A stretch of 64,000 nt of DNA from Eledone cirrhosa (Eukaryota). Made by a program: the position numbers and the translations under genes. A model generated the notes under the pieces. It was not told where the DNA came from and searched no databases. It was given only the letters and a program-made list of their open reading frames with translations. Shown in pieces: positions 8,945 to 62,665 of the stretch (position 1 is the first letter of the stretch; each line of letters starts with the position of its first letter). The stretch lies in the NCBI GenBank assembly GCA_964016885.1, contig OZ024740.1:339884001-339948000 (forward strand), given 5' to 3'.

Positions 8945-9185
8945 CTATCTGTATTACACTGACTGGGGTTCAGAACCAAAGATAGCCAGGTCATTTCTTG
9001 ATGGTTCTGAGATTGAAATTCTCAAGACTGAAGATCTAAGTAGCCCTAATGGATTAACTGTTGATAATGGTCAGCTCTATGTAACAGATTCAAACTATCA
9101 GAACAAAACATCTGGACCACAGATATGGTTATTCAATATGGCTACTAATAAATGGAACCGGTTTGCAGGATCTATAGACCTCAAG
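8945..9185 (+). CDS. Exon A: YWTD blades (YLYYTDWGSEPKIARSFLDGS...PNGLTVD...LYVTD)
   Basis: ttcag|C acceptor, AAG|gtatg donor; phase 2-0; LDL-receptor class B motifs. Confidence 0.92.
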
Positions 9186-12100
9186 GTATGTATGCTCTCG
9201 AAACTGAAATGTCAAATATGATCATTTGATGTGAGGAGACAATAAATTTAACTTTTCAGCTACTCAGGTCCTTCATTGGAAAGCAGATGTCCCCTTCTGC
9301 TGAAACTTCAACATTTTTCAGTTAAGTTTCTAACACTAGAAAATTATTAGCAATCACTGTAAAATGTTATATTATAAATGCAAGCATGGCTGTGTGGTTA
9401 AGGAATTTGCTTCACAACTACATTGTTTTAGGTTTATTTCTACTGCATGATATGTTGGACAAGTGTTTTCTACTGTTACCTTGTAAGTGAAATATGGTAA
9501 ACAGAAATTGTAGAAGCCTGTCATCACTAATAACATTAGTTGTCCATTTTTCCTGCAATCATATATATGTGTGTGTGTATGTGTGTGTGGGGGGGGGGTG
9601 CATGTGTTCATGTCTGTGTTTACATTTTTGTCTGCATTTATGTCCCCTAACTGAGCAGTTTGACAAAAAGAGATCAATAAAATAAGTACTGAAATTGATA
9701 TGACTGACTATGTAGTTTTATGGTAGTGCCCCAGCATGGCCACAGTTTAATGACTGAAACTAGTAAAAGAATAAAAGAACAAAATATTTATATCAAAAAC
9801 ATTATAGTAAAACCATTACAATCATATAGATATCATTATTATTGTTACAAGTAGATTGGCGGAATCGATAGAGTGTCGGACAAAGTGGGCCCTTTACATT
9901 CTGAGTTTAAATCCTGCTGTGGTTAGCTTTGCCGTTCATCCTTATGCAGTCAGTAAATAAAGCACCAGTAATGCACTGGGGTCGATTTAATCAATTTTCC
10001 CTTCCCCCCGAAAAATTGCTGGCCTTGTGCCTAAAGTAGAAACAATTATAAATGTGTTATTCTAATAGCATTATAGTTATTTCTGTTAGATATGATTATT
10101 GTCATATGTTCATAGTGTCACATTTGTTATAATGGTTTCTGATTTAGGTACATGGCCAATAATTTTGGAGGAGGAGAAAGTCGATTAAATTGACCCCAGT
10201 ATGTTACTGGTTTATCATTATTGTCATTAGTCTCAAACTGATATTATTGCTAGCATATATATTATATCTTTATTGATATCATTGTTGGTCATATGTGTCT
10301 TATACAGATATCATTAATATTTATCTCACACTGCACTGAATGTCCACATTCTATATTTACTCCCTTTTAAGTTACAGAGTTGTTACACCTGCTTTTGTTG
10401 ACCAGAATTAATCATTATAATAATGACTTTGATCTTCAATATACATGTGATTTTAAGTAATTAAAATTACTTCGCACACTATATTAAATTAGCTCTGACT
10501 TTACTAGTTATGATCACAATTAGGCATGTTTATTTGGTATCATTAATATATTTCTAATACATCATGCAGCCTAAAATTCTCAAGTAATTTTGAAAATAAT
10601 CTTAGAAATTGGAAACCCCGGGCAAGATAGTTGGATAACGTCCATGAGCTTGGTTGGTCTCATTGGAGACAGTTGCTTCTGACAGGACCCGCAGGGAAGA
10701 GTGTTTGAGGGCTCTGCCTCCACAACCCTCTCAGAAATAAGTGGGCAAAGAAGAAGGAGATATTTAGTAAAATAACTTTATTATGAATCTGGTGTTTGGA
10801 ACACAACTTAAAAGTTTTTCCATAAAATTATGATGGAATTTTTTTTAGATAAAGATAAATACTATAAAAATAACAATGTAGAGGTGTGTATGAAGGCATA
10901 TGTATATGAAGGCATATTGTGTCAGCTTGACTGACTGCAATTAATTAGTAGTAGCACTAACATGGCATGGTTCATAATAGAGATGTATATGAAAGTATAT
11001 ACAATGTGTTTATATAGGATAAACATACATTAATCTGGCTATGGATATTTTAAACTGTGATCATGTCATAGCTACCTTGGAAGCCATATGAGAATGTCAG
11101 ACTCTAATATAATATTTCAGTATTTTTTATACATCATTAGTGATGCCGACTTACTTGGTACTGAGACAAGAATAAGCTATATCTTATATACATATTGTGT
11201 ATAAAACATTCGTGACTGGCATTCTCACATGACTACTGATGTATGTCATGATATGGATTTCTACATGTCTTAAGACTGGCCTGACTTCAAAGTGAAATTC
11301 TTTCTTTTTTTTTAACCATTTTCATACCAAACCCCCTGAAACTGACTCTGATTCTATGATACAAAACTGTTTGTTTTAAAATATTTATATTTATCTAAAA
11401 ATATTCCAACACAAACTTAATGATGTAAAAAATAGTTATATTACTTAAATCCTCCAAATGATTATTTTCAAAATGATTTGAAAATCATAGGCAATGTTTT
11501 TCATTAGAAATATGTACCAAAAGAGTTAAATAATTTACTCAGAAATAAAGGACAATGCTCATGAAACATTCTATGGCCTCCTTCGACATGGGTGACATTG
11601 ATACAATTGAGGTTTAGTTCTTGTTGATTGCAAACATCAGTTTGTAAAGACTGATTCAGTTACTATAGTGACCACAATGTCATTTTTCTCCATATTCTTT
11701 CTCCAGATTCCACGTGGTATTACTCGACACGGTGATATCCTGTATTACACAGACTGGTCAACAGATGACAATACAGAAGGTTCCATATACCAGTACAACT
11801 TAAAGAAGTCCAGTCTTAACACGAACCCTCTAATCAGAGGAATTAAACCAACAGGACTTCATTATTCTCCTCGACAAATCATTTCTTCAGGTAACTTAAC
11901 CCTTCTTTTAACACCTTTCCATTGTAGTCACTCTCTAATTCTTCACCATTTAGCAGTGTGGTTCATAAGTTAGCTTCAGAACTATGTAACCATGTAGTTT
12001 GGGGTTCAGTCCCACTGTATGGCTTCTTGGACAAGTGTCTTCTACTATAACTCCAGACTGACTCATGGCTTGGGAGGAAAAAGTGTGCTACAGTGTGAAA

Positions 12101-12290: not shown

Positions 12291-12335
<45 letters not shown>

Positions 12336-14157: not shown

Positions 14158-14191
<34 letters not shown>

Positions 14192-17100
14192 TGCAGCCGA
14201 AACACCGCTCTGACCTAGGTACAGAGTCTGTCACCCTCTCCCCTTCCACTTTTCTTGTTTCCTTTGTCTAGTAGTCCTTGCTCTTCCCCTCTTTTTCCTC
14301 TCATTTATACCATTTGTAGTCCTTTCCAATGATGCTCTCTTTTTCTGTATGTTTATATAACTCTACTACGAAATAAAATTTGTAGAATAGCCATTAAATC
14401 TTCCTTCATTGAAATACTGAGAAACACATTAAATCTCAGTTTGTCATTGATGTTTCAAAATAATTATTCTGCTATATATATATAATATATATGTGTGTGT
14501 GTTTGAATATATATATATATATCATGCTGAGCAATAAAAATAAAACACAGTATTCTGGTTGATTAATCCATTGTTTCACAATCGTTTCAGAGGGTAAAAA
14601 TATAATTTACTGATGTATAGACTAATCAATAGCAGTTATGCAACTCAATACTGTTAGCCTCGAAAAAGCACATATGTTCTGCCGTCTATCCTCAGAAACA
14701 ATGGTTTGGGAATGTTATTCAATAGATACAAACAGCACTGATGTAATTGGGTAGAACATTGTGTTTGTGTCTGTATACATGTGTGTGAATATAATGTGTG
14801 TGTGTGTGTGTGTGATATGATATGATATAGTATATGATATTATTTACATCCATGTGATATTTCAGAGCCTGATGCAACATGTGATAATGCCGCTTGCTCC
14901 GATGAATGTATTCGTACTCCAGTTGACTATTCTTCTGAACGATTTCATTGCTCATGTCCTGATACATACAACCTGGTATTATCATCAGACAAGGCTATTT
15001 GTAAAGGTAACCACATTTCTTTTCTTCAAACATTAACATTAATTTGTTAACACTTCATGATAGGTTTTATAATTTAAAAAAATTTAAACTTTTAAGATAT
15101 AATTAATTTATTTAATTAAATTAGAATTTATTGCCAACCTTTGCCAGCTTCTATAAACATCTTGTCTTTGGAAGTTTATGTAACAACCTTTATAAAGTTA
15201 TGCTCCAAACATCAGTTTAATAAGAAGGAAGTTAGTTATATTACTAAATCCTTCTGAATTCTTGATTATTTTCAAAATTATTTGAAAATCGTAGGCACTG
15301 TTTTTCATTAGAAATATGGTGACAAAAGGGCTAATAACTTCTTTCTCTTTTATCTATATTTTGATAATTTCTGCTTTTACCACGAAACAATCAATATCTT
15401 AATTATAAATTGTTATTACTGTTGTTGTTGTTGCTGTGTGTGTTTGTGTGAGTGTGCATGTATGTGTATGTGTGTGTGAGTGTCACCCACTTCAAACTAC
15501 TAACTTAATGTCTCAATGCAACTCATAATTGGTGTTTTAATATTTATTCACTTTCATTAATGCTTTTATTTCAGAACCACAAAATTTCTTAATAGTGGCA
15601 GATCTAAATACACTAAAGCTAAAGGCTCTGGATGACCAACTTGATTCCAAAGTACATATAATTCACTATGGTCGTGCGGACAGCAGCTATGTTGCATTGG
15701 ATTACAATGATTTAGATAAAACCCTTTTTTGGAGTGACCTTCATGAAGGACAGTATGTTAACTTTTTTAGCTTCATTTTATACCTTTTTGTTTCTTTTTC
15801 AATAACAACATATCTTAAAATGTACACAAATAATTCCCCTCATCATCATTTCATGTCCTTCTTCTTTCCAAGCTGGCATGGGTTGGACAGGTCATCCAAG
15901 TCAGTTTTTATTTAGAGCTGTTTCTCCCCTAGGCAGATTGGAGGAAGATGCTGTACTCATACATTCTAGTTTTGGCATGGGTTTTATAACTGGATGCCTT
16001 TTCTAACAATAACAACTTTGCAGAATGTAATGGGTACATTTTATCATGGTATCAACACTAGAGAGATTGCCTTGTCCTCAGATGTACTAAAAGGTCCCCT
16101 CAACTATGATGTTACTGTTTAATTGTCAACTAGTTTACAGAGTGTACTGCATGTATGTTAACATGCCTCCAACACTAGAGAAGCTGCTTTGTCCTTGGCA
16201 AGACTAAAGAGTCTACTCTATTCTACATTGCTTCCATTCATATGTATGAGTGAATCTGGTGTTTGTGTGAGTGTGAGCCTGTATTTGTGCTTATTTTACA
16301 GTTTACATCCTGTAACTTGGTCCATTAATTGACTGTCATATACCCTATGAAAGGGTATAGTGTGATGGATTATAAAAGAATACAGAATGAGAGATAGTGT
16401 TATGTAACTGACAGATACAGCCTTTTTTGTAAAATGTGAAAACAAAAATTTGGCTACAAAATCCTTTTTTTGTGCATGCACTTTTAACTTATAAAAACAA
16501 CTTCTTAGAAACAATGCCATGATATCATAGTTGTCACAGATGGACCAACTTGACAAACAATATAATATAGATTATTATTATGAAAGGGCAGTATAAAATA
16601 AAGCACCAGTAATGCACTGGGATCAATTTTGTCAACTCATCCCACCACCACCAAAAAAAATTGTTGGCCTTGTGCCCAAATCAGAAACCATTATTAAAGG
16701 ACAGTGGATTGACAATATTGGTAAAGTGTCAGACAACATGCTTTGTGGCATAGAGTTATGGTCCTTTATACTCTGTGTTCAAATCCTGCCATGGTTAGCT
16801 TTGCCTTTCATCCCTACAGGGTCGATAAAATAAAGTACCAGTCATGCACTGAGATCGATTTAATCAACTTTCCCCTCCCCAAAAATTGTTGACCTTGTAC
16901 CTAAATCAGAAGCTATTATTATTATTATCATTGTTATTTTCATCATAATCACCATCACCACTAACTAATCAAATCCATGCCACATTGAAAGCAGAAGTAA
17001 AATGATGAATTTTATTATTGTTCTTAATTGAATTCAATGTTAGATAACTTTGTTTGTTTTAGTCTCTTGTCTTTACCATGTTTTCCCCATTTTATGTGTT

Positions 17101-20100
17101 CTCATTGTTTAACATGTCTTCTATAATTAAATCTTGTTACAGACAAGCCATCATGTATTCACATTTAGAAAAGACTGAACCAAAAGTTCTGGTGAAAGTC
17201 AACCATTCCATTGACTGCCTGGCTCTTGATAAAAAGCACCAGAAACTTTACTGGACTGGCTATAATAATATCACAGGTTTTGTTGCTGAAATCAACCTTA
17301 AACACCCAAATAAGCCTTACAAACAATTGCTGGTCAACTTAGATTCACCCAGAGCTGTCACCATCCATTCAGATAAAAAGTAAATTTAATATTTTATTTA
17401 TTTTCAAAACCATTATTTTATTGATGTTTATTAATTTCAATGTACAGTGGAAGCTGCTTATTATAATCAAAGATAATATTATCAAACGGTTATTGTTATC
17501 AAAATCGGTGGGCTTGAAACACACTCAAAATACCATTATATCCTCTGCTTAACCCTTTAACATTTACATTACTCTATATTTACTATTATATTTTCATGGT
17601 AAAGGCTTTATCTCACATAATTATTTCACAGAATATCGAATCTATGAGATTTTGATATTATTTATGTTGAGAATAATACCCTAACATCAGTATAAGCGAC
17701 TGGTTACAGCTGGTTTAAACAGAAAGAGGTGAGAAGAATTATGGCCTGATACAGCCAGTTTAAATGCTAATTTAATGGGTTAATGTTATCAGTTTCCCAA
17801 AGTGATCAAAATAGGCAGCTTCCAATGTATTATGAAGAATTTATTTCCAAGTCGACAGTGAGATTCTATTCATTGAATGTGTGATGTCTGAAGAATTTTA
17901 AACTCCAACACAACTACACATACACCCCTTCAAGTTTAGAGTTTTCATATAAACAATGTTAAGTGGTACAAATTTGTAAACAAACCAATAAAAAAAATAT
18001 AGCAAACATTTCAAAAGAGCTTGAACTTACCATCTTTATATGCATGTCTTTTTTTATGTTTAAAAGCTAAAGAAATCTATTGTTGCCAAATTCTCACCTT
18101 TACCATGAAGTAATATTCCAATAAAACGTTTATTCTGAAAGTGGAACTGAAATAAAACTAAGCTAACTATAAGCCTAAGTGTTCCAAGAGTATGAGCTCA
18201 CATGGTGCATCAATACAATCCTAAATAAACTAATAACCCTTACTGGCCTTCACAGTTCAATATTAATATTTTTGCCTTTTTGTTTTCCTTATGATTTAAT
18301 ATAAATGGTAAATAAAAATGCAAACCTAAAATAAAAATGAATCTAATATCATCTCATAGTTTAACTAAAATGAAATAAAATTATAATTCAAATTTAAATA
18401 ATTTTATGATTTATCTTTAGCTGGCCACTTATTTTCTGTCCCTGGAGATATTTTACCCAATTTTCTAATGCTATTATTATTGTAACAAATCTGTTTGGAT
18501 TTCTAATCCAAATATTTCTATGATAATTTTCAATCATCGAAACGTCTTGATAAATCGTGAGATAGTTTACCTTCAGCTCTAGCTGCTAAAATTATCATAT
18601 ATAGTTCCTAATTTGGACAGAAACTGTTGTCAACTGCCATTTGGTGTAAAGGTTAACACATTTGGCCAGAGTTTAAAAGATACAGAGTTCAATTTTCTGT
18701 AGTGGCTACTGGTCACATATTTTCTGTCTGTCAGAGTATTCATCTGATTTTCTACGGTAGAGAGTCGGACAACATGCTTTCCAGCATAGTTACGTCCCTT
18801 TACGATCTGAGTTCAAATCCCGCCGATGTTGACTTTGTCTTTCATCCTTACGGTGTCGATAAAAAAAAGTACCAGTAATGCACTGGATAATTGCTGGCCT
18901 TGTGCCTAAAGTAGAAACAGTTATTATCATAGCAGTGAAAAAGAGTGGTAGATTGGCAGTATCAGTAGAGCGTCGGACACCATGCTTTGTAGCATAGAGT
19001 TATGGCACTTTACATTCTGAGTTCAAACCCTGCCGAGGTTAGCTTTGCCTTTCATCCTTACAGGGTCGATAAAATAAAGCACCAGTAATGCACTGGAGTC
19101 GATTTAATTGACTTTCCCCTCTCCCAAAATTGCTGGCTTTGTGCCTAAAGTAGAAACAATTATCATGAATCTGTGTTTGGGTTTCAACATTTTTAATTTT
19201 AAATAATTTTCTCTTTTTTTTTAAACTTTAGCATCATATTTTGGAGTGAATATGGACTGAAATCTGGAAAAGCTGGTGTTTACCGATGCCACACAAACTG
19301 CCATCGACATAAAACAGTAATGGCAGAAAAACTACAGTGGCCCAACAGCCTGGTTATCCACAGAAACGAATTGTATGTTGCCGATGGTTTTCATGGACGT
19401 ATTTATGTCATGGATTTCAAAGGTCAGTTTACATTTACCAAATTTTTCTCATGATTAGAATAAAGTTATGAGAGTGAGCTCTCTTGAATTTGTTATATCT
19501 TTGTTGTACAGTACTTTCCTTATGTTTTTGTTCCAGCCAGGGAACTCACATTCTTGTTATTACTTAGTCAAAAGGAAATGCCTATTACACTTTTTGGAAC
19601 CTTCATGGGTGGTGGGACAAAGGACAATATCGTCAAACTGAAGACCTGACCTGAATGCTTGCAACAGAGTGGGCTATACTAAAGGGATCTAAGAGCCAAG
19701 TAGGGGGTGTTAAACCAGGTGATGGGCTAAGTCTACTACATCAGTAGGCCATGGCTGGATTTGAATTTCAGAATGCAAAGAAGTGAACAAAAAGTATAAG
19801 GAAGCTTGTCTGATGCTCTAACAGTTCCACCAGTCTACTGCCGGAGACTTCTACTTTATTTATTAACTCTGGAAGGAAGAAAAGCAAAGTTGATCTCCGG
19901 GGATTTGAACTCAGAACACAAGGAGCCAGAACTGGCTGTAGGATCTCTCTTATTTAATCTAAAGATGGGATGAAGGGTAGTGCCTGAACCCTACTTTTGC
20001 TTTCTTAGATGCAGAGCCAAGTTAGTGCAGGGTATCCCATCCTTTAACAATTCCACCATCCTTCATCTGGTACTATATTTATCAACCCTGAATCGATGAA

Positions 20101-50300: not shown

Positions 50301-53300
50301 GTAAGTTCAATTTTCTTTCATATCGTTATATAATGTGTGACTGTGGAGAGGTATGTTTTTTTGTGTATATGTATGTGTGTATGTATCATCATAATCGTCA
50401 TCATCATCATTATCACCATCACCATTATCATCATCTTTGTCACCATTATCATCATCATCGCCATCATCATCATCATCATTATCATCAAGATCCTCATCAT
50501 TATCATCATTGTCGTCACCATTATCATCATCATTATCACCATCATCATCATCATCCTCTTTTTATATCTGTTTTGCCATACTTGCATGCATTTGATAAGA
50601 CTTCTCCTATCACTTGTTGCAGTCCCTTCTCATCTCTGTTGGGTAGCTCACCATTATGACTTCAGACTTCATCACTTTTTCCTGCATCTTTTTTTAATTT
50701 TCTCCTTCCACAGATTCCTTCTACTTGAGATTGCCTGACACTGCATGATCCTACTCTCATCCTTCATACACACCACAGCTCACTCTTTTCTCTTGCACAC
50801 TACATGTCACTAATCTTACATCCATATTTTCTTTTGGCTGATTTATATTTTGTCATTCATACACACAAACATTACACAATTTTCAGAGTATGTTTACCTA
50901 ATTTATTTCCAGCTTTTACACATTCTTTTGGTTATTCAATATCTATGGGTATTTCACTATCGTGCAATATTACATTTTGCACACACCTCATACAATTTAC
51001 CTTTCATCCAAAAAGAGAAAAACTTATTGTTGCTAATAGGCAGTACCGGATTTACCATTGTGCTTAGTGTGCTTAAACACAGGGCCCTGTTAGCCAGGGA
51101 GGCCAATCTTCCTGCCAAAAAGATTTGTTACCTCCTTCAGGGTCCAAGTAAGGGGCCTCATAACTTAACTAGCACAGGGCCTCATTTGTCCTAAATCCAG
51201 CACTGCTAATATGTATATTAGCTCCTTCAATTTTTCCCATCCCATCCATGATTTCAGAATAGTACCACCAACACTGCTAATAAGTCACCTAGATAAGAAA
51301 AGCTATTAACTACTTTTAGTGAGCCTTCTGGACATTTGAAAGAATTCATTTCATGAGTGCTCTAACTGCTAACTACTCTTATACATCTTCTACATATAAA
51401 GTCTGTCTCGATCAGCCAGCCTATGATCCCACTATAACTCCTCATGGCTTAATTATTCTATCACTTAGTCTGATTACCTTATTTGCCTTATCTATCCATT
51501 TTTCTGCCAACAATATGACTTTTCCATGCCAAAAGATTTGTACCTGTGTTCCTTGCATGTAAGATGTCTGGCTGAATCTCTCTTCCATCTCACCTCTGTA
51601 CATGGCACACATTTTCTTCACTTCCACTCTAATATCTCACCAATCTCTCAAGACTTACATTTTATCCTACCATCTGAAAGGGAAGGAAAGAGTTTTACTT
51701 GTGGCGCTAGTGGGGTTGTTTATAATCAAGAGATACTCTGATTATGATGAAGTGGGTGTTTGTAAAATCTATGAATGTGTATGTATGTATTTATCTGAGT
51801 GTGTATGTATGTATGCATGTATGCATGCATGAAACTATTATACAATACTTGTTATATATTTTACAGGAATGCCCAAATTTGGAAACTGCCCTGAAGGGGA
51901 CACTATAACAGTAGCTCTTCCTAACCAAGAGAACAGTGTCTATGTAGCAGTCACTTGGTCAGCAACTGACCACTTGGACAAACGCCTTGTACTAGAGTCA
52001 AATATTCCATATAACAAAGATGGACTTCACTTAAAATGGCTGGGAAAATCTGAAAAACAGAAAGTTATCTTTACAGCTGTCGACCGTTGGAATCAAAAAG
52101 CTGTTTGTGAATTTTATGTCATTGTTGAAGGTAAGATCAGATCCTGTGTTGCTATATTGGTGTTTAACCCCAGCTCAACCTTCACCAAGCAGACTTATAA
52201 TTAAAGACTTTTCAGTTGTGTCCATCCAATATTTTTTTCAACATATTGTAACATTTAAGATAACAATATCCAAATTGTCCTTCATTTTTTTAAAGTCATT
52301 TTCATGAGATTTGACTGCTATTTCTAGCTGGTTGTCTAACCAAGAAGATAACATTTTTTTTAAGAGGCAAAATGTAGAAGAATTAGAAGCAAGAATTTCC
52401 TGATAAATGACAAAAAACTAGCACAATTGTTGCTGTTGTTATTATGACTGTTGTTTTTTTGTTATAAGCCATCAACACCAGCGACAGAGGGACTTTGTTA
52501 TATAGACCCAGTTTGCCTTGTTCAATCAGACCATCAAATCACTCAGTTGTTGTTATGTAGCCCCAGTTTGTTTTGCTCAGTCAGACCTATAATTCTCTCA
52601 GTGTTTGAAAATCGCTACACAGATCCACTAAAACTCCACCAGGAATGTGAGTTTTAATACTTTTGTAAAGATTTCCAACATTCATAGGTGTAGATATGGC
52701 CATGTGGTTAAGGGGTTTTCTTTGCAACCATGTGAGTTTTAATTCATACCCACTGTGTGACATCTTGAGCAAGTGGTTGCTACTGTAGCCTTGGGTTAAC
52801 CAGTGATTTGTGAATTAAATTTTGACCAATGGAAACTGCAAAGCTCATTGTATATATATGTGTATGAGTGTGCACATTTGTATATTTTTGTTTACATTTG
52901 TCTTTGTGTCAGTGTTTAAGTCCCATAACGTAGTGGCTTAACAAAAAGAGATCAATAAAATAAGTGCCAGACTTGAAATACTAAGTAATGAGCTTGATAT
53001 GATTGATTAACTCCCTTTAAGGTTATGCTGCAGCATGGCTGCAGTCTAATAACTGAAACCAATAAAAATAAAATGAAAAATAAAAAAGAATATATATTGT
53101 TCACTTTGCTGGTTTGAGAGCTGATGAGTATGTTTTATGTTTAATTACACAGTCATTTCTGTGTACCAACACACTTCTTGTTCTCCTCCTCTTTCAATCT
53201 TTTCTATATTTCATCTACCTGTCACCCACCTTGTGGATTGTCTCTTTGTTAACCGCTGGTGTCTGTCCTCTGAGGCATTTTTGCCCAATGCTGTCTTTGT

Positions 53301-54748
53301 CAGCATTTAGCTGTTTTAATAAATGTTCTAATGAGTTTTCTCATTTTTTATGTATATAATATATATTATGTTTCCGTCTCATTTTCACACAAATAATTAT
53401 TATTTTGCTCCCATTTTATCTCAATATTTCAGACCGAGAAGCTCCTCATTTTACCTACTGCCCTCACAATATTGTTATCAAAACAAACCTTTTCTCTGAA
53501 CGTGTCGTTTGGCCAACACCAGTTGCCGAAGACAATACTCAACTAGCAGAAGTGGTGTCTTCTCATCAAATTGGTTCAGATTTTACTTCTGGAACCACAG
53601 TTGTCAATTATACAGCAATAGACAAAACAGGAAACAATGCCACCTGTAACTTTAGTGTTACTATCATACCAGGTATGAACATATAATACATCTTTATAAG
53701 TTTTATTAAATAACACCTTATCTTGCAGAGCTCCAGTCTTTTTGTAAGGAACCTACTTTGGACAACACTGATATATAGAATGTGTACATTGCTAGTGAAA
53801 ACCCAAAAGTAGTAATAAAGAAACTAATGTATAGTTTCTGGTGCAGATCATACTAAAGATTACATAATAAAATATACAAAACACCAAACAGCATAACAAA
53901 ATAGTTCTTTATGTGATATCATGTTTATGTATTTAAACAGCTAAGTCTGTTAAATCCTACCCTGCTTAGTGATGTGACTGGTTGGATGGAAATAGGTAGG
54001 ATTTATAAACCTAGACTTTAGGCCAGGACTCAAAAGGGCAATAACATCCTGGGTGAGAGCCACAGTGGACCAAAAGGGAGATGAAGGAGATGCATGATTT
54101 CTACCAGTTATAATGCTAATCTTAACAACCAACACCAATGTGAGTTGTCAAATCCACCCCTTCTCACATTATGAAACAAAATATTTCCTTATTTTCTGTT
54201 GTGTGAGTTAGTTTTTTATAATCTCACTCACCCTTCCACTGTAATAAGTCTTTGAAACAAGTCAATGTAGATCTTAAAATAAATTGTGTGTTTGTATTAG
54301 GTTGGCAGGTTAGGGTTAATGCTGCTGCTGCAAGAGTATGGAAATATTAGTCATGAGAATTGTTCTGATGCAGGCTATAGAAAAGTAGTTTGCAGATCAC
54401 GTTTGAGATCCCTGCTTTAGGTATCATCATCATCATTTAACATCCATTTTCCACACTAGCATAGCTGTCCCTTTGAGAGAGATCAGGTCAGAGGACCATG
54501 TTTTTCTCACACAGGGCTGATTTGGGCTTGGTCTCTACAGCTGGATGCCCGTCCTAATGCCAACCGCATTTACTTTGTGTACTGAGTGCTTTTGTCTTGA
54601 CATATACATGACTACTATACAGTGTGGGCTTTTATCGTGGGTCCAGAGAGACCACTTCATGGTGTGGGATGGGACCTTAGGAGGGTGGGGGAAGAAGCTT
54701 GGGGAAATTGAGGACGTAGGTAATAGGGGAGGGGTGGTTACAGCAAGG

Positions 54749-54956: not shown

Positions 54957-54998
<42 letters not shown>

Positions 54999-57900
54999 TT
55001 AACCCTGACTTTTCTGTTTAATCTGGGGGAAGAGGACAGTGTCCATGAATATGTTTAATGCTTTTGAGACTGGCGGGAGGGAGGTGTCCTTAAACACGAA
55101 ACATGTCCTGAATGCTTGCAACAGAGTGAGTTCCACTAAATGCACTAAATGACCAGGGGGTGATGTTAAACTGGTTTATATATTAAGTATACCACCCTAG
55201 TAGACCAATGCAAAGAGCTGAACCAAATACTCCAAGGCATCTCATCCATAGAGCTACCATTACAGTATATATACTGTACAAGTGTATTATTATTATTAGC
55301 TAGCAGTTTTTTATCAACAATACAAGACCAAGAAAGAATTAAAAATATGAATAGAAAATCAGTGTAGTGAAAACTAAGATCATTCAACAAGTTTCCGCAT
55401 TATTTTAGGGGCTTAAGCCCCCCCCCCCCCCCAAAAAAAAAAACTTAATGCTAGAAAGCTTGATCCAATACTCTTACAATTCTTCCAATCCATCACCCTG
55501 GATTTGTACTTTATTTTATTAATCCCAAAAGGATGAAAGACAAAGTTGAGTTCTGTGAGCACAGAGCCCTGGAATAAATACTGCAAGGTATTTTTCCTAC
55601 ACTCTAACAACTCTGCCAATTTGCCAGCTATCACTGATCTCAACAGCTAAAATCTCTTGGCCTCAACCAAATATTATGTTCTAAAGCAGAGGTTGTCAAA
55701 CTTTTCAGCCCCTCCCCCCCCCCCCTCACGGCCACGTAATACCCTCACCTCATCCACCCCTATTTTCAGAGAGACCTGCCTACACATAAATGGTAAATAA
55801 TGCTTAATAAATAAAATTGTCAATTTATATATAATAAAAAATATAATATATACTATGTATAAATAAATGTATTTTTTTATTTTACTATATTTATATATAT
55901 GTATCATTTGATATTTCATATACTATCATATACCATCTCTACCCCTCCCCACCACCGCCTCCTTAGACCCCAACGCTCTCGGAGGAGGGGATTAGCACCC
56001 ACTTTGAGAACCTCTGTTCTAAAGCATCTGTAAGAATATTTCCTCCATACAGAGTTTACATGATTTCTTTTCTAATTGATTACAGAAACAAACTGCAACT
56101 TACCTAAAATTACAAATGGTAGATTTGTTTGTGGCACAGACCCACCACAACTAGCAATGTGTTATATTACCTGTGAAAGTAAGTTTGGAGTTAACCCTCT
56201 TGGAGTGTTCAACGAGCCATTTAACTGTAAAATTCTTGATAATATCCACAAACTGGAAGAGATTATGAAAACACAGAAGCCATGTTTAAGTAAGTAAAAT
56301 ATAAATTTTGCCATCATTATCTTTTGTTCTGGTAGCAGTTCGTTTGTCCACCCCTCTCGCTTGCCTTTTGTTGTTTGTGTGTTTTTAAAACATATTTGTA
56401 ATGTTATTTATACAACTGTGAATAAAATATATAGATTTTTTCTTTTTTTACATGACTATCAAATAGTTCTTCTAATTACTTCCTTTAATTTCATCGAATT
56501 ATGTTCTTTCAATTATCATTATTATACCTTGGAATTTTTAGCTATATTTCTTATGCATTTTATTTTCATTCCATTGGGATTGATAGACTAAATTCTGTCA
56601 TGAACTGATCTTAATTTAGTGAACAATATCCATCTCCCCACAAACTGTGAGGCTTTATGCCCATATTAGAAAGCATTGTTATTATTGAAAGCAGTAGAGT
56701 AGCAGTTGTGGGAGACAGCCATGCTAAATGTTGAATGGGATTTAATTACAACCCTTCGAAAACGGAGGAGTGTGTAACCAGCTACCTGTAGAAGCTCCTG
56801 TAGGCCACTAACCTAGTTCTCACAGCTAAGTCTGTCAAAGAATTCAAGAAAAATCCTAACTGTGGAAGCAAAGAGGCCTCAAAATACACTTAACAAAGAC
56901 ATTTTTATTTTAATTGGTAGGAAAGAAGACAGGATTCTACTGCCATCTAAAAAGTAGCCATACTCAATGTACAGAAAATAACTTGGTAGGAATTTCATAT
57001 GGTGCATCCAATGTAAACTATGGGTACACAAGATGTATAACTCGACCACAGGCAGGCTAACAGAAGAAGGACTTCACGTGTAGCTGATGAACAGAAGTAG
57101 ATAACAAAAAGTGCACCCATAAGATAAATTATTTCAAATGCATGGAGGGTTCCCCAGAAGTAAGATAACCTGTTACCTAGATGATTTAATTAATAGTAGA
57201 GGAGGGAGTTTAAAGCAGAGTAGTCAGAATAAGAAAGGAGTTATTGCATCTGCTGGTAGCAAAAGGTTTCTCTTTCTGAGTGAAAGGCAGATTTTATGAT
57301 CATTGTATATGAAAATGTGTAACGTCAAGGTATGTATGCTTTGATGGGTATGCAATGTTAGTAGTGTGCAAGAACAATAGAGTACAAATATCTGAGAGAA
57401 AAACTGTATATAAGAGAAAGAAGACTGACTGGTGTGTACATGTGATGTGAGTGAAGGATGATTATATAGAAGTACCAAGCTATTCAAGTAGATAGAGTCT
57501 TGGAAATAGGGAGGCATGGGTAGAAGTGATGAGAACAGATCTCAAGAGGATAAACCTCACAAAGGAGATGATAAAGAATTGTGTCAATTGGTAAAATACT
57601 GTAGAAGAACTGTTCAAACAAATTTAAAATGATTATGATGATGACAATGAAGATGACATTCTTATTTGAAATCATTTTTCTATTGGGGGGCTGATAAAAT
57701 AAAGTAGCAGTACTAGACTGGATTAAATCAATTATACCTCTAACTCAAAATGTGTAACTTTGTCAATGTTAAAAACAAGCATTATTATTGTTTAAATGTA
57801 TAATGTGAATAGATAATAAGATTATAAACTTTTTCAGATTCTTATCCTTGTCACTGATGTATGTGCAGTAACCTCGTGGATGAGAACATTATTACCCCTA

Positions 57901-60900
57901 GTTTTAAAATAACGATTTCTAATTTTAATGAAGTTTATTCTCATGAACAAGACACAGTATAAATGTAAATATATATTTTTTTAAAGTTACTCTCTGAATA
58001 TAAAGTCAATAATTTTATGATACACTACAGAATAAATACATAGATTATACCACTTGAGTCTGCCATAGTTGGATTACCTGAATGAGAGAGTATGTTGTAA
58101 GATCTGAAACACACAAGGATTCCAGAATACAACACTGGTGATGTATCCAAGTAAGGGCATCTGTAGATGTATGAAACATTGAACTGAACAATTTTGATCT
58201 TACACAACTTATCATTGTTAACAATTGTATACCACCCTAGTAGACCAATTCTGCAATGCTAATTATTTCACTATTGTTTACTAAATAGATAACCACCATC
58301 CATTCAAAGTACAACAAGAATTTGAAATACAGTTTCAAGGCAGGTGTGAACAGGATGACTCCAGCCTACACTCAAAGCTCTCATCTGCAGTTACACAATA
58401 TCTTGAGGCCCAGAACCATTGTTGGGATGTTAAATGTAACTTTAACAATATCACAGTCCTCTGTGGACCAAGAACTGATGGCCACCGATACAAACGATCA
58501 AATTACTTTACTGTTACATGGAACATCACAATAAACAATGTGTAAGTATCAACATTCCATCAGTATTCATCATCAAGTCTACCATGGCTCTTATATATAT
58601 ATATTTGTGTGTGTGTGTGTGTATGTGTGTGTGTGTGTGTGAAAGCCTTTTAGCTATGAATTTTAGAAGCTGATGGCTAGCGCCACCAGGTGGATTCCAG
58701 CACTAGCAGGAGCAGGTAATCTGCCAACAGTCGACTGTTTCTGACTGATGTTTTATGATACATTTAGTCATGTAATCCATTTTTAAGGCTCTGCAGCATA
58801 TTAATATGAAGACTGACCTGCTTTTGATGTTATTTCAAAGGTCAGGCAAATGATTAGCAATATTTGTTCTGGGTCTTTACGTCCTACTTTGTTTTACATT
58901 CTTCCAAGGTCAATAAAATAAAATAACAGTTAAATAATGAGTCAGTATAATCAGTATAATAAACTTTCCCTTCTTCCAAATTGCTTTGCAGCATATGTCT
59001 CTTTACATTCTGATTTCAAATCCTGTCAAGGTTAGCTTTGCCTTTCATCCTTACGGGCTTGATAAAATAAAGTACCAGTAATGTACTGGGGTCTATTTAA
59101 TCGACTTTCCCCTCCCCCAAAATTGCTGGCCTTGTGACTAAATCAGAAACCATTGTTGGCAGTATTGGTAGAGCATCAGACACCATGATTTGCAGCATAG
59201 GAGTTATGGCGCTTTACGTTCTCAGTTCAAATTCCGCCAGGTTAACTTTGCCTTTCATCATTACGGAGTCGATAAAATAAAGTACCAGTAATGCACTGGG
59301 GTAATTGCTGGCCTTGTGCCAAAAGTAGAAACATTATTATTATTATTATCATCATTAAAGGGCGGTGGATTGGCAGTATCAGTAGAGGGTCGGACGCCAT
59401 GCTTTGCAGCACAGTTATGTCCCTTTACGTACTGAGTTCAAAACCCGCCGAGGTTAACTTTGCCTTTCATCCTTAAGGGGTCGATAAAATAAAGTACCAG
59501 TAATACACTGGGATAATTGCTGGCCTTGTGCCAAAAGTAGAAACAATTATCATCATTATCAGTGGATTTGCAGCATTTATTCGGTAGAGCGTGGGGACAA
59601 CAAGATTTGCAGCATATAGTTATCTCTTTACGTTCTGAGTTCAAATCCTACCAAAGTTTACTTTGCCTTTCGGGGTCAATAAAATAAAGTACCAGTCGAT
59701 GTAATGACTTTTCCCCTCCTTACAAATTGCTGCCCTTGTGCCAAAAAAGTAGAAACAATTATTATTATTATCATCATCATCATCATCGTTGTTGTTGTTA
59801 TCTTCATCACAGACAACGTCTACCGAAATCTGATATTCGTGACATTCTGGAGGCTTTTGAACAAGAACTTGCTTATGTGGCCGAGCTATTCTCCATCAAT
59901 GTCCATGACCGAGAATATAAATCTGTTCCTGGAAGTGTCAAGGCATCAGCCCCTTACTGGCAATGTAAATCTGGAGAAATGCTGCAAGATGAATACTGCA
60001 GTAAGTTCTCCTTCTTCTTTTTCTTCCTTCTTTTTCTTATTTCTTTTCCTTTTTCCTTTTTCCTTTTTCCTTTTTCCTTTTTCCTTTTTCCTTTTTCTTC
60101 TTTTTCTTCTTCTCCTCCTCTTCTTTAACTTATGTAATCTCTCTCTCTCTCCCTCTCTCTCTCTCTCACTTACTCACTCTATCCAATTGTATTTTCTCAG
60201 TTCCTTGCCCTCCTGGTTCAATGTTGAACATCACATCACAGAGGTGTGCTTTCTGTACAGTTGGTTTCTACCAAGAACAGGAAGGACAAACCAACTGTAA
60301 AATCTGCCCTGATGGTGTCAGTGCTGCAGAGGGCGCTACCAGCCTAGATTATTGTAAGTATACATATTCAGCTGATCTTTCACCACACACACACTGTTTC
60401 TATCTATCTATCTCCCCTTTACTCTATCTATATCAATATCTATCTCCCCTTTACTCTATCTATATCAATATATATCTCCCCTTTACTCTATCTATATCAA
60501 TATATATCTCTCCTTTACTCTATCTATATCAATATCTATCTCTCCTCCTCTATCTCCTCTATCAACATTTATATTGCACTTTCTCACACTTTCTGTATCT
60601 TTATCCTTCCTTTTTTCTCTTCACCATCACTACTACTAACATAATCTTGATGACCATCATCATCATCATCACTCCCATCATCAGCTTATCATCACCATCC
60701 ACATTATCAGTATCATCATCATCTTCATCATTACTGTCTAACCTATTCTAATTTACTTTCTCTATATTCTATATTTGTAAATGTATGTGGATTTGAGTTT
60801 AGGACAGGAGTCACAAATATGTGGCATGCTGGCTGCATGCAGTCTGCAAACTACTTTTCTCTGGCTCACAGCAGAACAATTTTTGTGAATAATATTCCAT

Positions 60901-62665
60901 ATTCTTGCAATTTACCCATGAAATACAATAAAATGACGAAAATTGAATTTATGGAATTAAGGAAAATTTTAAATGAAAAATGTGTCCCCCTACATTTTGT
61001 ACTAATTCACTTATCTCATATACTTTCACATGTGTATTCCATCTTCATGAAAAAATAAAATAAATAGCAGCCTAACAGATGGGCATTACAGATGGGCATA
61101 ATAGCTGGTGGAAATCATGCCCTTCCCTCCAACTCATCCCACTTTTGGTCCACAGTGCCTCTTTTCCAGGATGTAATGGCCCTTTTGAGTTCTTAAGTTT
61201 GAGACCTATGATTTAGGGTTTTGGGTTCACAATTGTAAAGTCATGAGTTTGATTCTAGCATAGAGGTGTATTGTGTCCTTGAACTAGGAACTTTATTTCA
61301 TGTTGCTTCAATCCATTGCTAAAAAAGATTAGTTGCAGCATCACTGGTGCCAAGCTGTGTCAGCCTTTGCTTTTCCTCTTTGACAACATTGGTGGCATGG
61401 CGAGGATAGACATGCATGAATGGGTCACTGCTGGTCTTCCACACAACACTTTGTCTAGGTTTGCTCCTTGGAGAGGAACTTTCCAGGTACAGACCCATGG
61501 TCATGACTGGCCATAGGTGTTTTTGAGGACCCTTTTGGCTTTGATGAAAGTTTGTGAATCTCTCTAGTGATTGTACTGTGATGGAATGCACCCAGCCCCA
61601 TTTGGAATTTGGTAGTGCTGGTGCAAAGATGAAATACTCCCAGCCCCATTTGGAATTTGGTAGTGCTGGTGCAATGATAGAATGCTCCCAGTCAATTCTT
61701 TAAAATGATAGTGCTGTTGCCATAATAAAATCCACCCGGTACAATCTGTAATTTGGTAGTGCTGGTGCAATGGTAAAATGCTCCCAGCCCCATTTGGAAT
61801 TTGGTAGTGCTGGTGCAATGACAAAATGCTCCCAGTCAACTCTTTAAAATGATAGTGCTGTTGCTATAATAAAATGCACCCAGTACAATCTATAAATTGG
61901 TAGTGCTGGTACCACAAAAATGCACATAGTGCATTTTGTAAAGTAGTAATGCTGATACCGCAATAAAATGCCCCCAGTACACTCTGTAAAGTGGTATTGA
62001 TGATACCACAAAAAATGAACCCAATACATTCTGTAAATTTGGAAGTGCAGGTACCATGATAAAATGCACCCAGTACACGCTACAGAGTGGTTGGTGTTAG
62101 GAAGGGCATCCAGCTGTAGAAACTATCCTAAAATATAGTACATAGGAGCAATATGCAGTTTCTCCAACCTATCTAGTCTGAGACCATGACAAACTCTCCA
62201 ACCCATGCCAGCATGCAAAGCAAATGTAAAATGATGATGATGATGATGATATGACAACCCATATATCTCTTTGTTTTTGCAGGTATCTCCATCCCAGCCA
62301 TTGATGAAATGAGTAAATTCCTCATTATCACAACTTGTACATTTGGATTTGTCTTCCTCTGTCTGGTGATCTTCATGTACCTTCAGTACCAGCGTCAGCA
62401 ACGGAAAGCTAGTAATCTCAAAGCAGCACCTACCCCAAGAAATACAACAACGAGCGTGTACGTCGCTCCGCCCCCTTTCCCTCGTGTCAAGCCAGTCAAT
62501 GGCAGTTTTGAGACACGAGACTACATGTATGTCCATGAGTATGAAGACATAGAGAATGCTTCGCAGGTATCAAAGATGCCAAACCCTAATATAGATGCAC
62601 TTTATCGAATTCCGCCACATATGCAGCGAAGACTGGCTTCCACAGAAAATATCTATGATGACTGA
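8945..62665 (+). CDS. Spliced gene (18 coding exons visible, 5' end outside window): LRP-like YWTD/EGF + GCC2/GCC3 + mucin + 2xHYR + CCP + SEA-like + TM receptor
   Basis: Exons joined by hand give one open frame of 3634 nt ending TGA at 62663-62665; every junction is GT-AG and the phases match. Confidence 0.9.
9380..9780 (+). mobile_element. tRNA-derived SINE family 2 (copies ~11953, ~23618, ~29335, ~33785, 52693-53075)
   Basis: Head GCATGGCTGTGTGGTTAAG, internal (TG)n, tail GTGCCCCAGCATGGCC...CTGAAAC.AGTAAAAGAATAAAAG shared across copies. Confidence 0.75.
9851..10047 (+). mobile_element. tRNA-derived SINE family 1, long form (many further copies in window)
   Basis: A-box TGGCGGAATCG, B-box-like GAGTTTAAATCC, core GCCTTTCATCCTT..GATAAAATAAAG.ACCAG, (ATT)n tail. 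Confidence 0.85.
11316..11525. mobile_element. piggyBac-like MITE family 2 (also 38952-39212, ~49833-50066, partials near 15130 and 34525)
   Basis: TTAA-type flanks, CCCTTTT.ATACC / GGTAACAAAAGGG ends, shared AT-rich interior. Confidence 0.7.
11707..11890 (+). CDS. Exon B: last YWTD blade (IPRGITRHGDILYYTDW...PTGLHY)
   Basis: ctccag| acceptor, CAG|gtaac donor; phase 0-1. Confidence 0.92.
14568..14704 (-). ncRNA. Degenerate type-I hammerhead motif in Penelope-like remnant
   Basis: CCATTGTTT-CTGAGGA...CT-GAAA-C-GATT-GT-G-AAACAATGG; 9-bp stem I; cleavage triplet GUG is non-functional. Confidence 0.5.
14866..15006 (+). CDS. Exon C: EGF domain (CDNAACSDECIRTP...HCSCPDTYNLVLSSDKAICK)
   Basis: ttcag| and AAG|gtaac; six-Cys EGF spacing; phase 1-1; not in the ORF track in this frame. 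Confidence 0.9.
15575..15752 (+). CDS. Exon D: start of second YWTD propeller (EPQNFLIVAD...VALDY...LFWSD)
   Basis: tttcag| and CA|gtatgt; phase 1-2. Confidence 0.9.
16698..16915 (+). mobile_element. SINE family 1 (long form), preceded by a partial copy
   Basis: Same head, core and tail as the other family 1 copies. Confidence 0.8.
17143..17379 (+). CDS. Exon E: YWTD blade (LALD...KLYWTG...LDSPRAVTIH)
   Basis: ttacag| and AA|gtaaat; phase 2-2. Confidence 0.9.
17445..17827. mobile_element. pogo/Tigger-like MITE with a nested piggyBac-like MITE
   Basis: TA|CAGTGGAAGCTGCTTATT ... AATAGGCAGCTTCCAATG|TA; TTAA-flanked insert at 17553-17779. Confidence 0.75.
18755..19161 (+). mobile_element. Two tandem SINE family 1 copies (short and long form)
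   Basis: Repeated A/B boxes and core. Confidence 0.85.
19232..19422 (+). CDS. Exon F: YWTD blades (IIFWSEYG...LQWPNSLVI...LYVADG)
   Basis: ctttag| and AAG|gtcagt; phase 2-1; translated by hand. Confidence 0.9.
20175..20495 (-). mobile_element. SINE family 3 (copies ~37970-38105 and 61210-61510)
   Basis: Shared GGTCATGAATGACCATGG..CTAGAAAGTTCCCCCTCCGAGGCACAA block; tRNA-like head. Confidence 0.65.
22680..23060 (+). pseudogene. Old RTE fragment (similar decayed pieces ~34925-35160 -, ~51280-51640 -, ~57100-57650 +)
   Basis: LHDACL..MLYGSE, ERNEASM, YGHIV, RPRKTW motifs with stops and frameshifts. Confidence 0.7.
23157..23348 (+). mobile_element. SINE family 1 (short form)
   Basis: GGTGGATTGGCAGTATCAGTAGAG head, GAGTTCAAATCC B-box, core, tail. 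Confidence 0.85.
23901..25010 (+). mobile_element. 5'-truncated second copy of the young RTE LINE
   Basis: Colinear with 3152-4371; ORF 24038-24616 differs at 7 of 192 aa; (GAT)n tail; sits in a (TA)n tract. Confidence 0.95.
25400..26430 (-). pseudogene. Decayed L1/Tx1-like reverse transcriptase fragment
   Basis: INLDQLTAF (=LDQxKAFD), GVPLSFLLY (=GCPLSPLLY), AYANDI (=AYADD), with frameshifts. Confidence 0.75.
27985..28191 (+). CDS. Exon G: last blade of second propeller (HIFGLQIYEHLLFYSRW...LTQPTAIVVHHP)
   Basis: ttcag| and G|gtaagt; phase 1-1; translated by hand. Confidence 0.9.
29152..29288. repeat. Fold-back element in a (TA)n tract
   Basis: ATATTTGAAAAAAAGGAAAAGAATGACTTCACT is mirrored at ~29256-29288, plus an inner inverted pair. 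Confidence 0.85.
30540..31575. repeat. Compound (CAA/CAC/CAG)n array with 80-bp and 39-bp higher-order units
   Basis: CACTAGCAGT recurs at 30891, 30971, 31051, 31144 and 31232; 39-nt units at ~31410-31550. Confidence 0.9.
31626..31745 (+). CDS. Exon H: EGF domain (CNTDKNDCKGMCVPVPHNYHCTCDPGYQLTDEKC)
   Basis: tttcag| and T|gtaagt; six Cys; phase 1-1. Confidence 0.92.
31797..32024. repeat. Hairpin formed by two inverted RTE-type 3' tails
   Basis: (CAT)n-CACCGTTTTA..CCATGCTAGCATGGGTTAGAC mirrored by GTCTAACCCATGCTAG..TAAAACGGTG-(ATG)n. Confidence 0.85.
32517..32700 (+). mobile_element. SINE family 1, CpG-rich young copy
   Basis: Intact head and core with CpGs retained. Confidence 0.85.
33158..33301 (+). 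CDS. Exon I: EGF domain (CPEGCPDHAFC...YECVCAAGFHGNGEVC)
   Basis: ttttcag| and G|gtattt; phase 1-1. Confidence 0.92.
35377..35481. repeat. 13-bp minisatellite (CAGTCACATTGAC)n
   Basis: About 8 degenerate tandem units. Confidence 0.85.
36835..36981 (+). CDS. Exon J: GCC2/GCC3 (ephrin-receptor-like) Cys-rich repeat (CPNNTYKSDIGNSSCLPCP)
   Basis: ttgcag| and G|gtaaat; phase 1-1. Confidence 0.88.
37614..37809. mobile_element. mariner-like MITE (partial relative at ~22267-22333)
   Basis: TA flanks; TIR ..GGCTGAAAAGTTCATA / TATGAACTTTTCAGCC.. Confidence 0.75.
38714..38872 (+). CDS. Exon K: Ser/Thr-rich mucin-like stalk
   Basis: tgccag| after a long pyrimidine tract, G|gttagc donor; 159 nt, phase 1-1, open frame. 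Confidence 0.78.
39500..39862. repeat. ~52-bp minisatellite
   Basis: CACCCAAATCACT..TATCACACATCATACTG recurs about every 52 nt. Confidence 0.85.
40700..42075 (+). mobile_element. Decayed 5'-truncated R4/Dong LINE
   Basis: RMHHPKVDVRRLYLPQKEGG, CRLC..ESIDHIVADC knuckle, REL-endonuclease remnants; ends at (TAA)n. Confidence 0.85.
42099..42284 (-). mobile_element. SINE family 1 (short form) between two Dong elements
   Basis: Reverse complement of the family consensus, CpGs intact. Confidence 0.88.
42304..45255 (+). mobile_element. R4/Dong-clade LINE, apparently 5'-complete, frameshifted, with RT core deleted
   Basis: KSPGPDG, HLLFMDD, CRIC..H...C knuckle, RHD, RPDLVV, DVACP, EKINRY (restriction-like endonuclease); (TAA)n on both sides. 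Confidence 0.92.
45735..46200 (-). pseudogene. R4/Dong-like knuckle/endonuclease fragment
   Basis: CLC..ETLHHII and IDIAIP..K...YTDL..E motifs on the minus strand. Confidence 0.6.
46250..47760 (+). mobile_element. Cluster of SINE family 1 copies (best: 47342-47530 and 47541-47758)
   Basis: Multiple heads and cores separated by (ATT)n tails. Confidence 0.8.
49233..49685 (-). mobile_element. Two tandem antisense SINE family 1 copies
   Basis: Reverse complement of the family consensus. Confidence 0.82.
51041..51205. mobile_element. hAT-type MITE
   Basis: TIR CAGTACCGGATTTA / TAAATCCAGCACTG; 8-bp TSD CTAATAGG / CTAATATG. Confidence 0.8.
51867..52130 (+). CDS. Exon L: HYR domain 1 (PKFGNCP...VTWSATD...FTAVD...AVCEFYVIV)
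   Basis: ttacag| and AAG|gtaaga; phase 1-1. Confidence 0.9.
53433..53672 (+). CDS. Exon M: HYR domain 2 (DREAPHFTYCP...VVWPTPVAEDN...YTAIDKTGNNATCNFSVTI)
   Basis: tttcag| and CAG|gtatga; canonical HYR motifs; phase 1-1. Confidence 0.93.
54791..54960 (-). mobile_element. Penelope-like pseudo-LTR remnant with inverted partial duplication, inside (TA)n
   Basis: (TA)n on both sides; inverted repeat ~54865-54901 vs ~54927-54963; contains a hammerhead motif; family assignment is inference. Confidence 0.6.
54875..54923 (-). ncRNA. Type-I hammerhead ribozyme motif
   Basis: GAUUC-CUGAUGA-U-UUC-AAAU-GAA-U-GAAA-CAG-UUCUAGUC-CUG-UA^GAAUC: full core with stems I and III paired. Confidence 0.75.
55687..56016. 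mobile_element. hAT (Charlie-like) MITE
   Basis: Perfect 8-bp TSD TTCTAAAG (55679-55686, 56017-56024); TIR CAGAGGTTGTCAAAC / CTTTGAGAACCTCTG. Confidence 0.9.
56086..56289 (+). CDS. Exon N: divergent CCP/sushi-like domain (CNLPKITNGRFVC...CYITCESKF)
   Basis: ttacag| and A|gtaagt; phase 1-1. Confidence 0.85.
58289..58541 (+). CDS. Exon O: Cys-containing SEA-like region with RYKR site
   Basis: aaatag| and GT|gtaagt; phase 1-2; open frame translated by hand (differs from the ORF-track frame). Confidence 0.85.
58985..59760 (+). mobile_element. Head-to-tail array of four SINE family 1 copies
   Basis: Units at ~58985, 59156, 59360 and 59560, each ending GCTG.CCTTGTG...AGAAAC. Confidence 0.88.
59813..60000 (+). 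CDS. Exon P: continuation leading into Cys-rich repeat (WQCKSGEMLQDEYC)
   Basis: tcacag| and A|gtaagt; phase 2-1 matches both neighbours. Confidence 0.87.
60201..60353 (+). CDS. Exon Q: GCC2/GCC3 repeat (PCPPGS...CTVGFYQEQEGQTNCKICP...GATSLDYC)
   Basis: tctcag| and T|gtaagt; phase 1-1. Confidence 0.92.
60400..60560. repeat. ~32-bp minisatellite (TATCTATCTCCCCTTTACTCTATCTATATCAA)n
   Basis: About 4 tandem units. Confidence 0.85.
61205..62250 (+). mobile_element. Composite SINE: tRNA-like head + ~45-bp internal tandem array + RTE-derived tail
   Basis: Repeats of GGTAGTGCTGGTGCAA..AAAATGC.CCCAG at 61585-62085; 36 nt identical to the RTE 3' UTR; (ATG)n tail. Confidence 0.75.
62283..62665 (+). 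CDS. Exon R: transmembrane helix and cytoplasmic tail, stop codon
   Basis: ttgcag| acceptor; hydrophobic FLIITTCTFGFVFLCLVIFMYL followed by basic QRQQRK; TGA at 62663. Confidence 0.92.

Follow-up and report, generated by a model that had tools for sequence, protein, structure and literature searches.

Does a chain of exons that begins with LRP-type propellers and ends with HYR, CCP and GCC modules of the kind found in SVEP1 and Uninflatable belong to a single gene, and if so, what sort of receptor does that gene encode? The chain lies in a window of 64,000 nucleotides of AT-rich, microsatellite-rich animal DNA from Eledone cirrhosa (C1:339,884,001-339,948,000; genome of 3.0 Gb), in which the original prediction had seen a chimeric membrane receptor and had recognised no named counterpart.

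The exon chain and the extent of the gene

All 18 exons, A to R, were found at the predicted positions (Table 1), flanked by AG on the 5' side and GT on the 3' side, with GT-AG at 17/17 introns. Splicing them, as had been proposed, gave a single frame of 1,210 aa whose sole stop was the final codon, whereas each of 2,000 control splices assembled from random same-length, AG-started pieces contained at least 37 stops. The product aligned end to end, with 91.6% identity and 2 gaps, to residues 602-1811 of O. sinensis XP_029642142.2, which carries the database name "LRP4-like", and was 89.2% identical to Argonauta GAB1599252.1. The predicted phase-compatible chain is thus upheld by its borders, its open frame and its 89-92% identity to octopod proteins. 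They represent the 3' portion of a single gene, whose product is a single-pass membrane protein carrying three YWTD propeller-EGF units on a stalk made up of mucin, HYR, CCP, SEA and GCC modules; both the gene and its family are almost certainly real.

Table 1. Exons and the K-L intron of the receptor gene, in window positions.
Feature	Position	Strand	Content
Exon A	8945..9185	+	Later YWTD blades of propeller 2; AG/GT, open frame; O. sinensis 602-682
Exon B	11707..11890	+	End of propeller 2
Exon C	14866..15006	+	EGF behind propeller 2
Exon D	15575..15752	+	Start of propeller 3
Exon E	17143..17379	+	Propeller 3
Exon F	19232..19422	+	Propeller 3
Exon G	27985..28191	+	End of propeller 3
Exon H	31626..31745	+	EGF behind propeller 3
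Exon I	33158..33301	+	Additional EGF
Exon J	36835..36981	+	GCC / ephrin-receptor-like repeat 1; PF07699 match at C1:339920834
Exon K	38714..38872	+	Thr/Ser-rich mucin stalk; missing in O. sinensis isoform X2
K-L intron	38873..51866	+	12,994 bp; LINE-like open frames at 40582-45178
Exon L	51867..52130	+	HYR 1, divergent; missing in O. vulgaris model
Exon M	53433..53672	+	HYR 2; PF02494 E 3.4e-12
Exon N	56086..56289	+	Divergent CCP/sushi-like; Cys pattern aligns with coral and urchin CCPs and thyroglobulin; no Pfam call
Exon O	58289..58541	+	SEA part 1; furin-type RYKR loop
Exon P	59813..60000	+	SEA part 2
Exon Q	60201..60353	+	GCC / ephrin-receptor-like repeat 2; PF07699 E 1.7e-6
Exon R	62283..62665	+	Juxtamembrane, TM helix, ~90-aa tail with YVAPPP, EYEDI and terminal IYDD; stop codon

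The window covers the last two-thirds of the protein, from the second half of propeller 2 onward and with propeller 3 complete. Exons encoding O. sinensis residues ~144-601 lie farther upstream in collinear order, also on the plus strand and beginning at C1:339,527,879, which places the gene start at least 356 kb upstream of the window and extends the gene over at least 419 kb. A signal-peptide exon exists in the O. sinensis model and in orthologues; a search of another 200 kb on the upstream side of that first exon did not reveal it. The SEA and TM exons are single copy, with no second good match in genome searches.

Several repeats were recorded along the way. A LINE-type element with endonuclease and reverse-transcriptase frames (Pfam RVT_1, Exo_endo_phos_2), split over two frames, occupies window positions 956-3864 (+), and a near-identical 3' fragment of it lies in the F-G intron at 23903-24613 (+). 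The plus-strand open frames in the K-L intron were read as LINE-like from their translation and matched no Pfam family. A long ACC-rich tandem array in the G-H intron (30548-31554) has Thr/Pro/Gln-rich, mucin-like frames and, because it is absent from orthologous proteins, is taken to be an intronic repeat. On another contig, a nidogen-like gene exon occurs twice in opposite orientations, at C28:97.486 and 97.507 Mb.

Architecture and proposed working

The full-length protein runs from a signal peptide through three YWTD propeller-EGF units, an EGF, a GCC repeat and a mucin stretch into HYR-HYR, a divergent CCP, SEA, GCC, TM and a Tyr-rich tail. The domain order originally given holds, but the propeller count does not, since the whole protein has three propellers rather than one and a part. 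All three propeller-EGF units are complete, and in the full-length O. sinensis orthologue Pfam scored PF00058 (E 2e-53) and found no LDL-A, vWA, pentraxin, CUB or catalytic domain. The same scan scored one HYR stretch and no Sushi, so that HYR 1 and the CCP are divergent and were identified by aligning them with relatives; in the Owenia orthologue, both HYR stretches pass.

A structural model of the O. sinensis CCP-SEA-GCC stretch, built from a 12-row alignment, reached a pLDDT of 87 and contained a ferredoxin-like middle domain. Four SEA domains were among the top eight hits of a fold search; SEA matches included MUC16 (Z 9.0, rmsd 4.7, 116 aligned), TMPRSS6 (Z 8.6, rmsd 3.4, 110 aligned), MUC16 SEA5 (Z 8.5) and Gpr126 (Z 8.0), scores that tie with some unrelated ferredoxin-like folds or exceed them by only ~1. 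On the strength of this model, the domain first described as SEA-like very probably has a SEA fold. The entire block also matched thyroglobulin (Foldseek E 3.6e-13; profile E 1e-10 over residues 1215-1514).

The furin-type RYKR of cephalopods falls inside the SEA loop, the only low-confidence loop of the model (residues 130-136). Strict R-x-[KR]-R was present in 6/13 aligned orthologues and a dibasic motif in 11/13, five gastropod or other rows being dibasic only and two bivalves having no basic cluster at this loop; the coral and urchin proteins carry RRKR/RKKR there. SVEP1 is described as having a SEA module with a furin site (PMC13722417) and as being cleaved into two fragments upon secretion (PMC10281526). 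Cleavage of the SEA loop in cephalopods is predicted and seems probable. Abalone orthologues have an additional SEA copy ahead of the mucin stalk (Haliotis P0011, residues 1089-1241), and in the Potamilus, Mercenaria and bivalve-type P0257 proteins no EGF-GCC pair precedes the mucin and the basic SEA loop is missing.

A single hydrophobic peak marks one TM helix at residue ~1096 of 1210, and the TM segment is the best-conserved part of the protein among molluscs. Over the 39 juxtamembrane and TM residues, identity is 77-90% to three gastropods, 54% to a fourth (Biomphalaria) and 62% to three bivalves, with the folded ectodomain exons lower in the gastropod comparison (19-54%); in Owenia, TM and tail identity falls to ~20% (juxtamembrane and TM, 21%). 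A two-copy prediction of GCC plus TM, made with the Haliotis orthologue, gave no usable answer (score 0.02). The tail does not vary among octopods (100% identity) and keeps 91% identity to that of a decapodiform-type orthologue, and a YEDI-type motif (Y[ED][ED][IAM]) is present in 13/15 mollusc tails.

The first propeller departs from the usual pattern: DQ replaces DW and NQ replaces NG in 8/8 lophotrochozoans. We take the propeller 1 motif positions to correspond to the Arg141 and Asn185 sites of LRP6. Compared on the basis of an octopus four-propeller locus and these motif positions, the lophotrochozoan first propellers keep the Arg in 7/8 and the Asn in 8/8. NxI peptides bind to LRP6 at the top face of its propeller 1, where the contact residues include Arg141 and Asn185 (PMC9136615 and PMC3843708). 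Since the DW tryptophan is Gln in all eight first propellers, this propeller probably binds a ligand unlike the NxI-type ones of LRP5/6.

We propose, with a probability of about 0.65, that this conserved mollusc and annelid protein acts as a non-enzymatic co-receptor, and we lean mildly toward such a role over uptake or structural ones. By analogy with SVEP1, cleavage by a proprotein convertase would occur at the basic loop of the SEA domain, whose fold would hold the two pieces together until the head is shed or pulled off. The top faces of the propellers are predicted to bind a secreted or matrix protein, not a lipoprotein, the altered pocket of propeller 1 making a ligand other than the NxI type likely, and the optional mucin exon K may determine how far the head extends. 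A membrane partner could pair with the strongly conserved TM segment, and a partner kinase would phosphorylate the YEDI-type and YxxPPP tail motifs, recruiting SH2 adaptors or endocytic machinery.

Alternatively, the protein may mainly be an endocytic receptor for scavenging or uptake like LRP1 and LRP2, its propellers binding and releasing cargo and its tail tyrosines serving as sorting signals. Its YWTD-EGF units are indeed of LDLR-family type, yet the LDL-A repeats that bind cargo in that family are missing in 19/19 proteins examined (DCxDxSDE motif, 0/19; no PF00057 in the full-length O. sinensis orthologue). NPxY was found in 4/15 mollusc orthologues, as FSNPTY (canonical FxNPxY), and [FY]xNxxY in the urchin protein and in both of the coral ones, but NPxY is missing from the cephalopod and gastropod tails (11/15 molluscs lack it); PPPSP occurs in 1/15, and neither NPxY nor PPP[ST]P is present in the tail of the window protein. 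The FSNPTY carriers are four heterodont-type bivalve proteins. YEDI also fits the endocytic YxxPhi consensus, so this motif does not separate signalling from uptake. Strong conservation of the TM segment would be unexpected for a plain anchor, and on balance we regard a mainly endocytic role as unlikely.

A structural role, in which a mucin-like or Uninflatable-like anchor at the apical surface or matrix sets membrane growth or adhesion and the shed head becomes a matrix component, is less probable still. Mucin, SEA and TM together make up a tethered-mucin layout, Uninflatable (Uif), which has CCP and HYR domains, has a proposed role in adhesion (PMC3340373), and Polydom-like proteins of Nematostella increase in epithelial remodelling (PMC12549020). 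The mucin exon, however, is short and is skipped in one isoform, and the near-invariant tail of octopods and decapodiform-type relatives argues for specific intracellular partners.

Any of these roles concerns the product of one transcript, and continuity across the K-L intron can be followed in relatives. A related cephalopod cluster, which includes Sepia pharaonis CAE1322106.1, has 14 members, 11 of them Logan proteins of 1,342-1,757 aa. The contigs bearing these 11 measure 4.5-6.2 kb and could not accommodate introns as long as those of the present gene; J-K-L is continuous in 11/11, from which it follows that the two halves form one transcript in a related cephalopod. Whole proteins are likewise found on Logan contigs of a bivalve (7.2 kb) and a sea urchin (8.5 kb). 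The K-L intron itself gave no tblastn match to 22 family or related proteins; the skipping of exon K or of exon L, each seen in one octopus model (Table 1), keeps the frame here. Partial or split records exist for O. bimaculoides (369 aa, a C-terminal piece), Sepia (1,035 aa) and Patella vulgata (635 + 1,441 aa), the last being split inside propeller 2 and not at K-L. Searched for signs of separate genes, exon L showed no signal-peptide-like start and exons A-K no TM. That gene callers fused an LRP-like gene ending at K with a Polydom-like gene starting at L is therefore rejected as highly improbable, despite the repeat elements in the 13-kb intron, the stop directly behind exon K if its donor is unused and the C-terminal O. 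bimaculoides record, because J-K-L is unbroken in the intron-free cephalopod contigs and the fused form is found again in gastropods, bivalves and an annelid. The claim that exons A-R form one gene accordingly stands on the open frame and on K-L continuity in the contigs of relatives, not in Eledone cirrhosa itself, and the two-gene outcome that had been raised against it is largely refuted by the same read-through.

Distribution and ancestry

A receptor class possibly restricted to molluscs or lophotrochozoans had been suggested. Surveying orthologues gave clear ones in cephalopods, gastropods, bivalves and the annelid Owenia, and this part of the expectation is borne out; the layout is not confined there. 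Among the 120 matches listed of 758 in a profile search, 17 had both YWTD and HYR, namely 14 mollusc or mollusc-like proteins (including two unnamed Logan proteins), one from Owenia fusiformis and two from Montipora; no vertebrate or arthropod protein with both was among those 120. In a search of 50% representatives with the C-terminal half, HYR-repeat proteins dominated, with orthologues at 3/150 among the matches listed, and the ESM Atlas gave no usable match. The same layout of three propellers, CCP/HYR, SEA, GCC and TM, with more CCP/HYR repeats, is found in the sea urchin Strongylocentrotus (XP_030837510/11) and in two paralogues of the coral Montipora. Strict lophotrochozoan restriction of the layout is therefore rejected, and it is the tight orthologue group that comprises molluscs and the annelid.

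In the trees, the octopus four-propeller loci served as stand-ins for vertebrate LRP4/5/6. Propellers 1, 2 and 3 of molluscs and Owenia form one clade each (SH-aLRT 99-100), outside the LRP1, LRP2 and four-propeller clades, with weak deep branches. A careful tree of 35 propeller rows, from which bivalve rows, the second coral paralogue, most LRP1/LRP2 units, octopus LRP2 and nidogen were excluded, supported the three clades at 98/99, 100/99 and 100/99. The mollusc and Owenia CCP-SEA-GCC blocks also form a clade (96/95) in a tree without the SVEP1 and Uif SEA exons of the present genome. Across phyla, propeller 1 of corals, urchin and lophotrochozoans groups (SH-aLRT 83-96; 94/80 in the careful tree), but propellers 2-3 and the CCP-SEA-GCC block do not, the coral and urchin blocks forming an open fork with Polydom-like blocks of Mytilus and Lamellibrachia. 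Also placed in the cross-phylum propeller 1 clade are propeller 2 of the urchin, a coral protein with tandem propellers but no HYR, and another octopus gene with three propellers (C2:122.23-122.27 Mb), and urchin propellers 1 and 3 pair with this C2 gene, not with the present one (95/97 and 97/87).

The second three-propeller gene, at C2:122,227,000-122,274,400 (+) (loci L061, L050, L024-L026 and L051), showed no LDL-A motif and no CCP, HYR or GCC exons within ~96 kb downstream. Montipora XP_068695701.1 has no HYR; it combines six near-identical propeller-EGF units with mucin, EGF, a SEA-like segment containing RKKR, and TM, and its propeller groups with propeller 1 of the present family.

The layout may go back to a single ancient fusion followed by duplication, or its parts may have been joined more than once. 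Somewhat short of even odds, we place the reading that the gene forms the lophotrochozoan arm of a receptor family, so far undescribed, that predates the cnidarian-bilaterian split, arose by a single joining of propellers to core, was kept in corals, echinoderms, annelids and molluscs, and was lost in vertebrates and ecdysozoans. Its product would then be a cleavable, possibly force-released co-receptor whose core is shared with SVEP1, Uninflatable and thyroglobulin, and loss from vertebrates and ecdysozoans would explain why model organisms never revealed the family.

Comparison with known families

With the LDLR/LRP family (LRP4, LRP5/6, LRP1 and LRP2), the protein shares tandem six-bladed YWTD propeller-EGF units, a single TM helix and an O-glycan-type stalk. 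It differs in lacking LDL-A, in having three propellers and an HYR-CCP-SEA-GCC stalk, in the absence of NPxY and PPPSP in octopus and in not grouping with any named LRP. The genome has separate loci with an LRP1 layout, an LRP2 layout and two four-propeller layouts, the latter two of which we infer from layout to be LRP4 and LRP5/6. Orthology of the present gene to LRP4 or LRP5/6 is rejected, its propellers forming their own clades outside the LRP clades. Cueball and pro-EGF likewise combine YWTD, EGF and TM without LDL-A, and are not known to have an HYR, SEA or GCC block.

With SVEP1/Polydom, the protein shares the Sushi-HYR-GCC(TKE) core (HYR and GCC by Pfam, CCP by alignment only), a SEA domain with a basic site between CCP and GCC, and EGF and GCC ahead of the HYRs. 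Unlike SVEP1, it is membrane-bound, with TM and tail, carries a YWTD head and a single GCC behind SEA, and lacks the N-terminal vWA, central pentraxin and long CCP tail (Pfam, full-length orthologue). Polydom-like proteins of Nematostella have a Sushi-HYR-TKE core, the additions named being TSR or Ig; the main text of PMC12549020 nowhere uses the word "propeller", and no YWTD head is given for the Polydom-like forms in the part of it covered here. Two near-identical Polydom-like gene copies lie ~1.7 and 2.5 Mb downstream of the present gene, at C1:341.66-341.70 and 342.41-342.45 Mb (L063-L070), with EGF, GCC, CCPs, HYR, CCP, SEA with RKRR, three GCC and EGF; the pair is either a recent duplication or an assembly duplicate. 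Drosophila Uninflatable is also a large single-pass TM protein with CCP and HYR domains, but the present protein has YWTD propellers and lacks the C-type lectin, CUB, FA58C and 18-EGF array reported for Uninflatable (PMC3340373).

The entire CCP-SEA-GCC block is shared with thyroglobulin (~1215-1514) and is homologous by profile and fold; thyroglobulin differs in being secreted, in having no propellers or HYR and in carrying no basic cluster at the aligned loop. The uncharacterised urchin XP_030837510.1 and coral XP_068706774.1 and XP_068714407.1 share the signal peptide, three propeller-EGF units, CCP/HYR, CCP-SEA(RxKR)-GCC and TM; they differ in having many more CCP/HYR repeats and no mucin ahead of the HYRs, and only propeller 1 groups.

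The forecast that automated pipelines would call such a protein LRP-like proved accurate, with NCBI names that include LRP2/4/5/6-like, SVEP1, SCUBE1-like and uncharacterized. Mollusc surveys of Wnt co-receptors, agrin receptors or vitellogenin receptors may miscount the gene as a result. No match to an already characterised family emerged, LRP, SVEP1 and Uninflatable all failing, in keeping with the earlier statement that no named gene with this domain order was recognised. Searches of the open literature (with subscription journals and supplements such as the Nematostella matrisome tables outside their scope) gave no description of the layout; six accession or locus identifiers returned 0 papers, and the available portions of PMC7853314, PMC6626399 and PMC12867482 do not describe it.

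In sum, the gene encodes a receptor of molluscs and an annelid with a strongly constrained TM segment and tail, which links the LRP propeller module to the Polydom/thyroglobulin core. Its function is a prediction, and the gene is a specific target for knock-out studies in cephalopods, gastropods, annelids or sea anemones. Set beside the systems above, it is a real, well-conserved and publicly annotated but misnamed receptor, apparently undescribed, all of whose parts are known modules brought into a new order.
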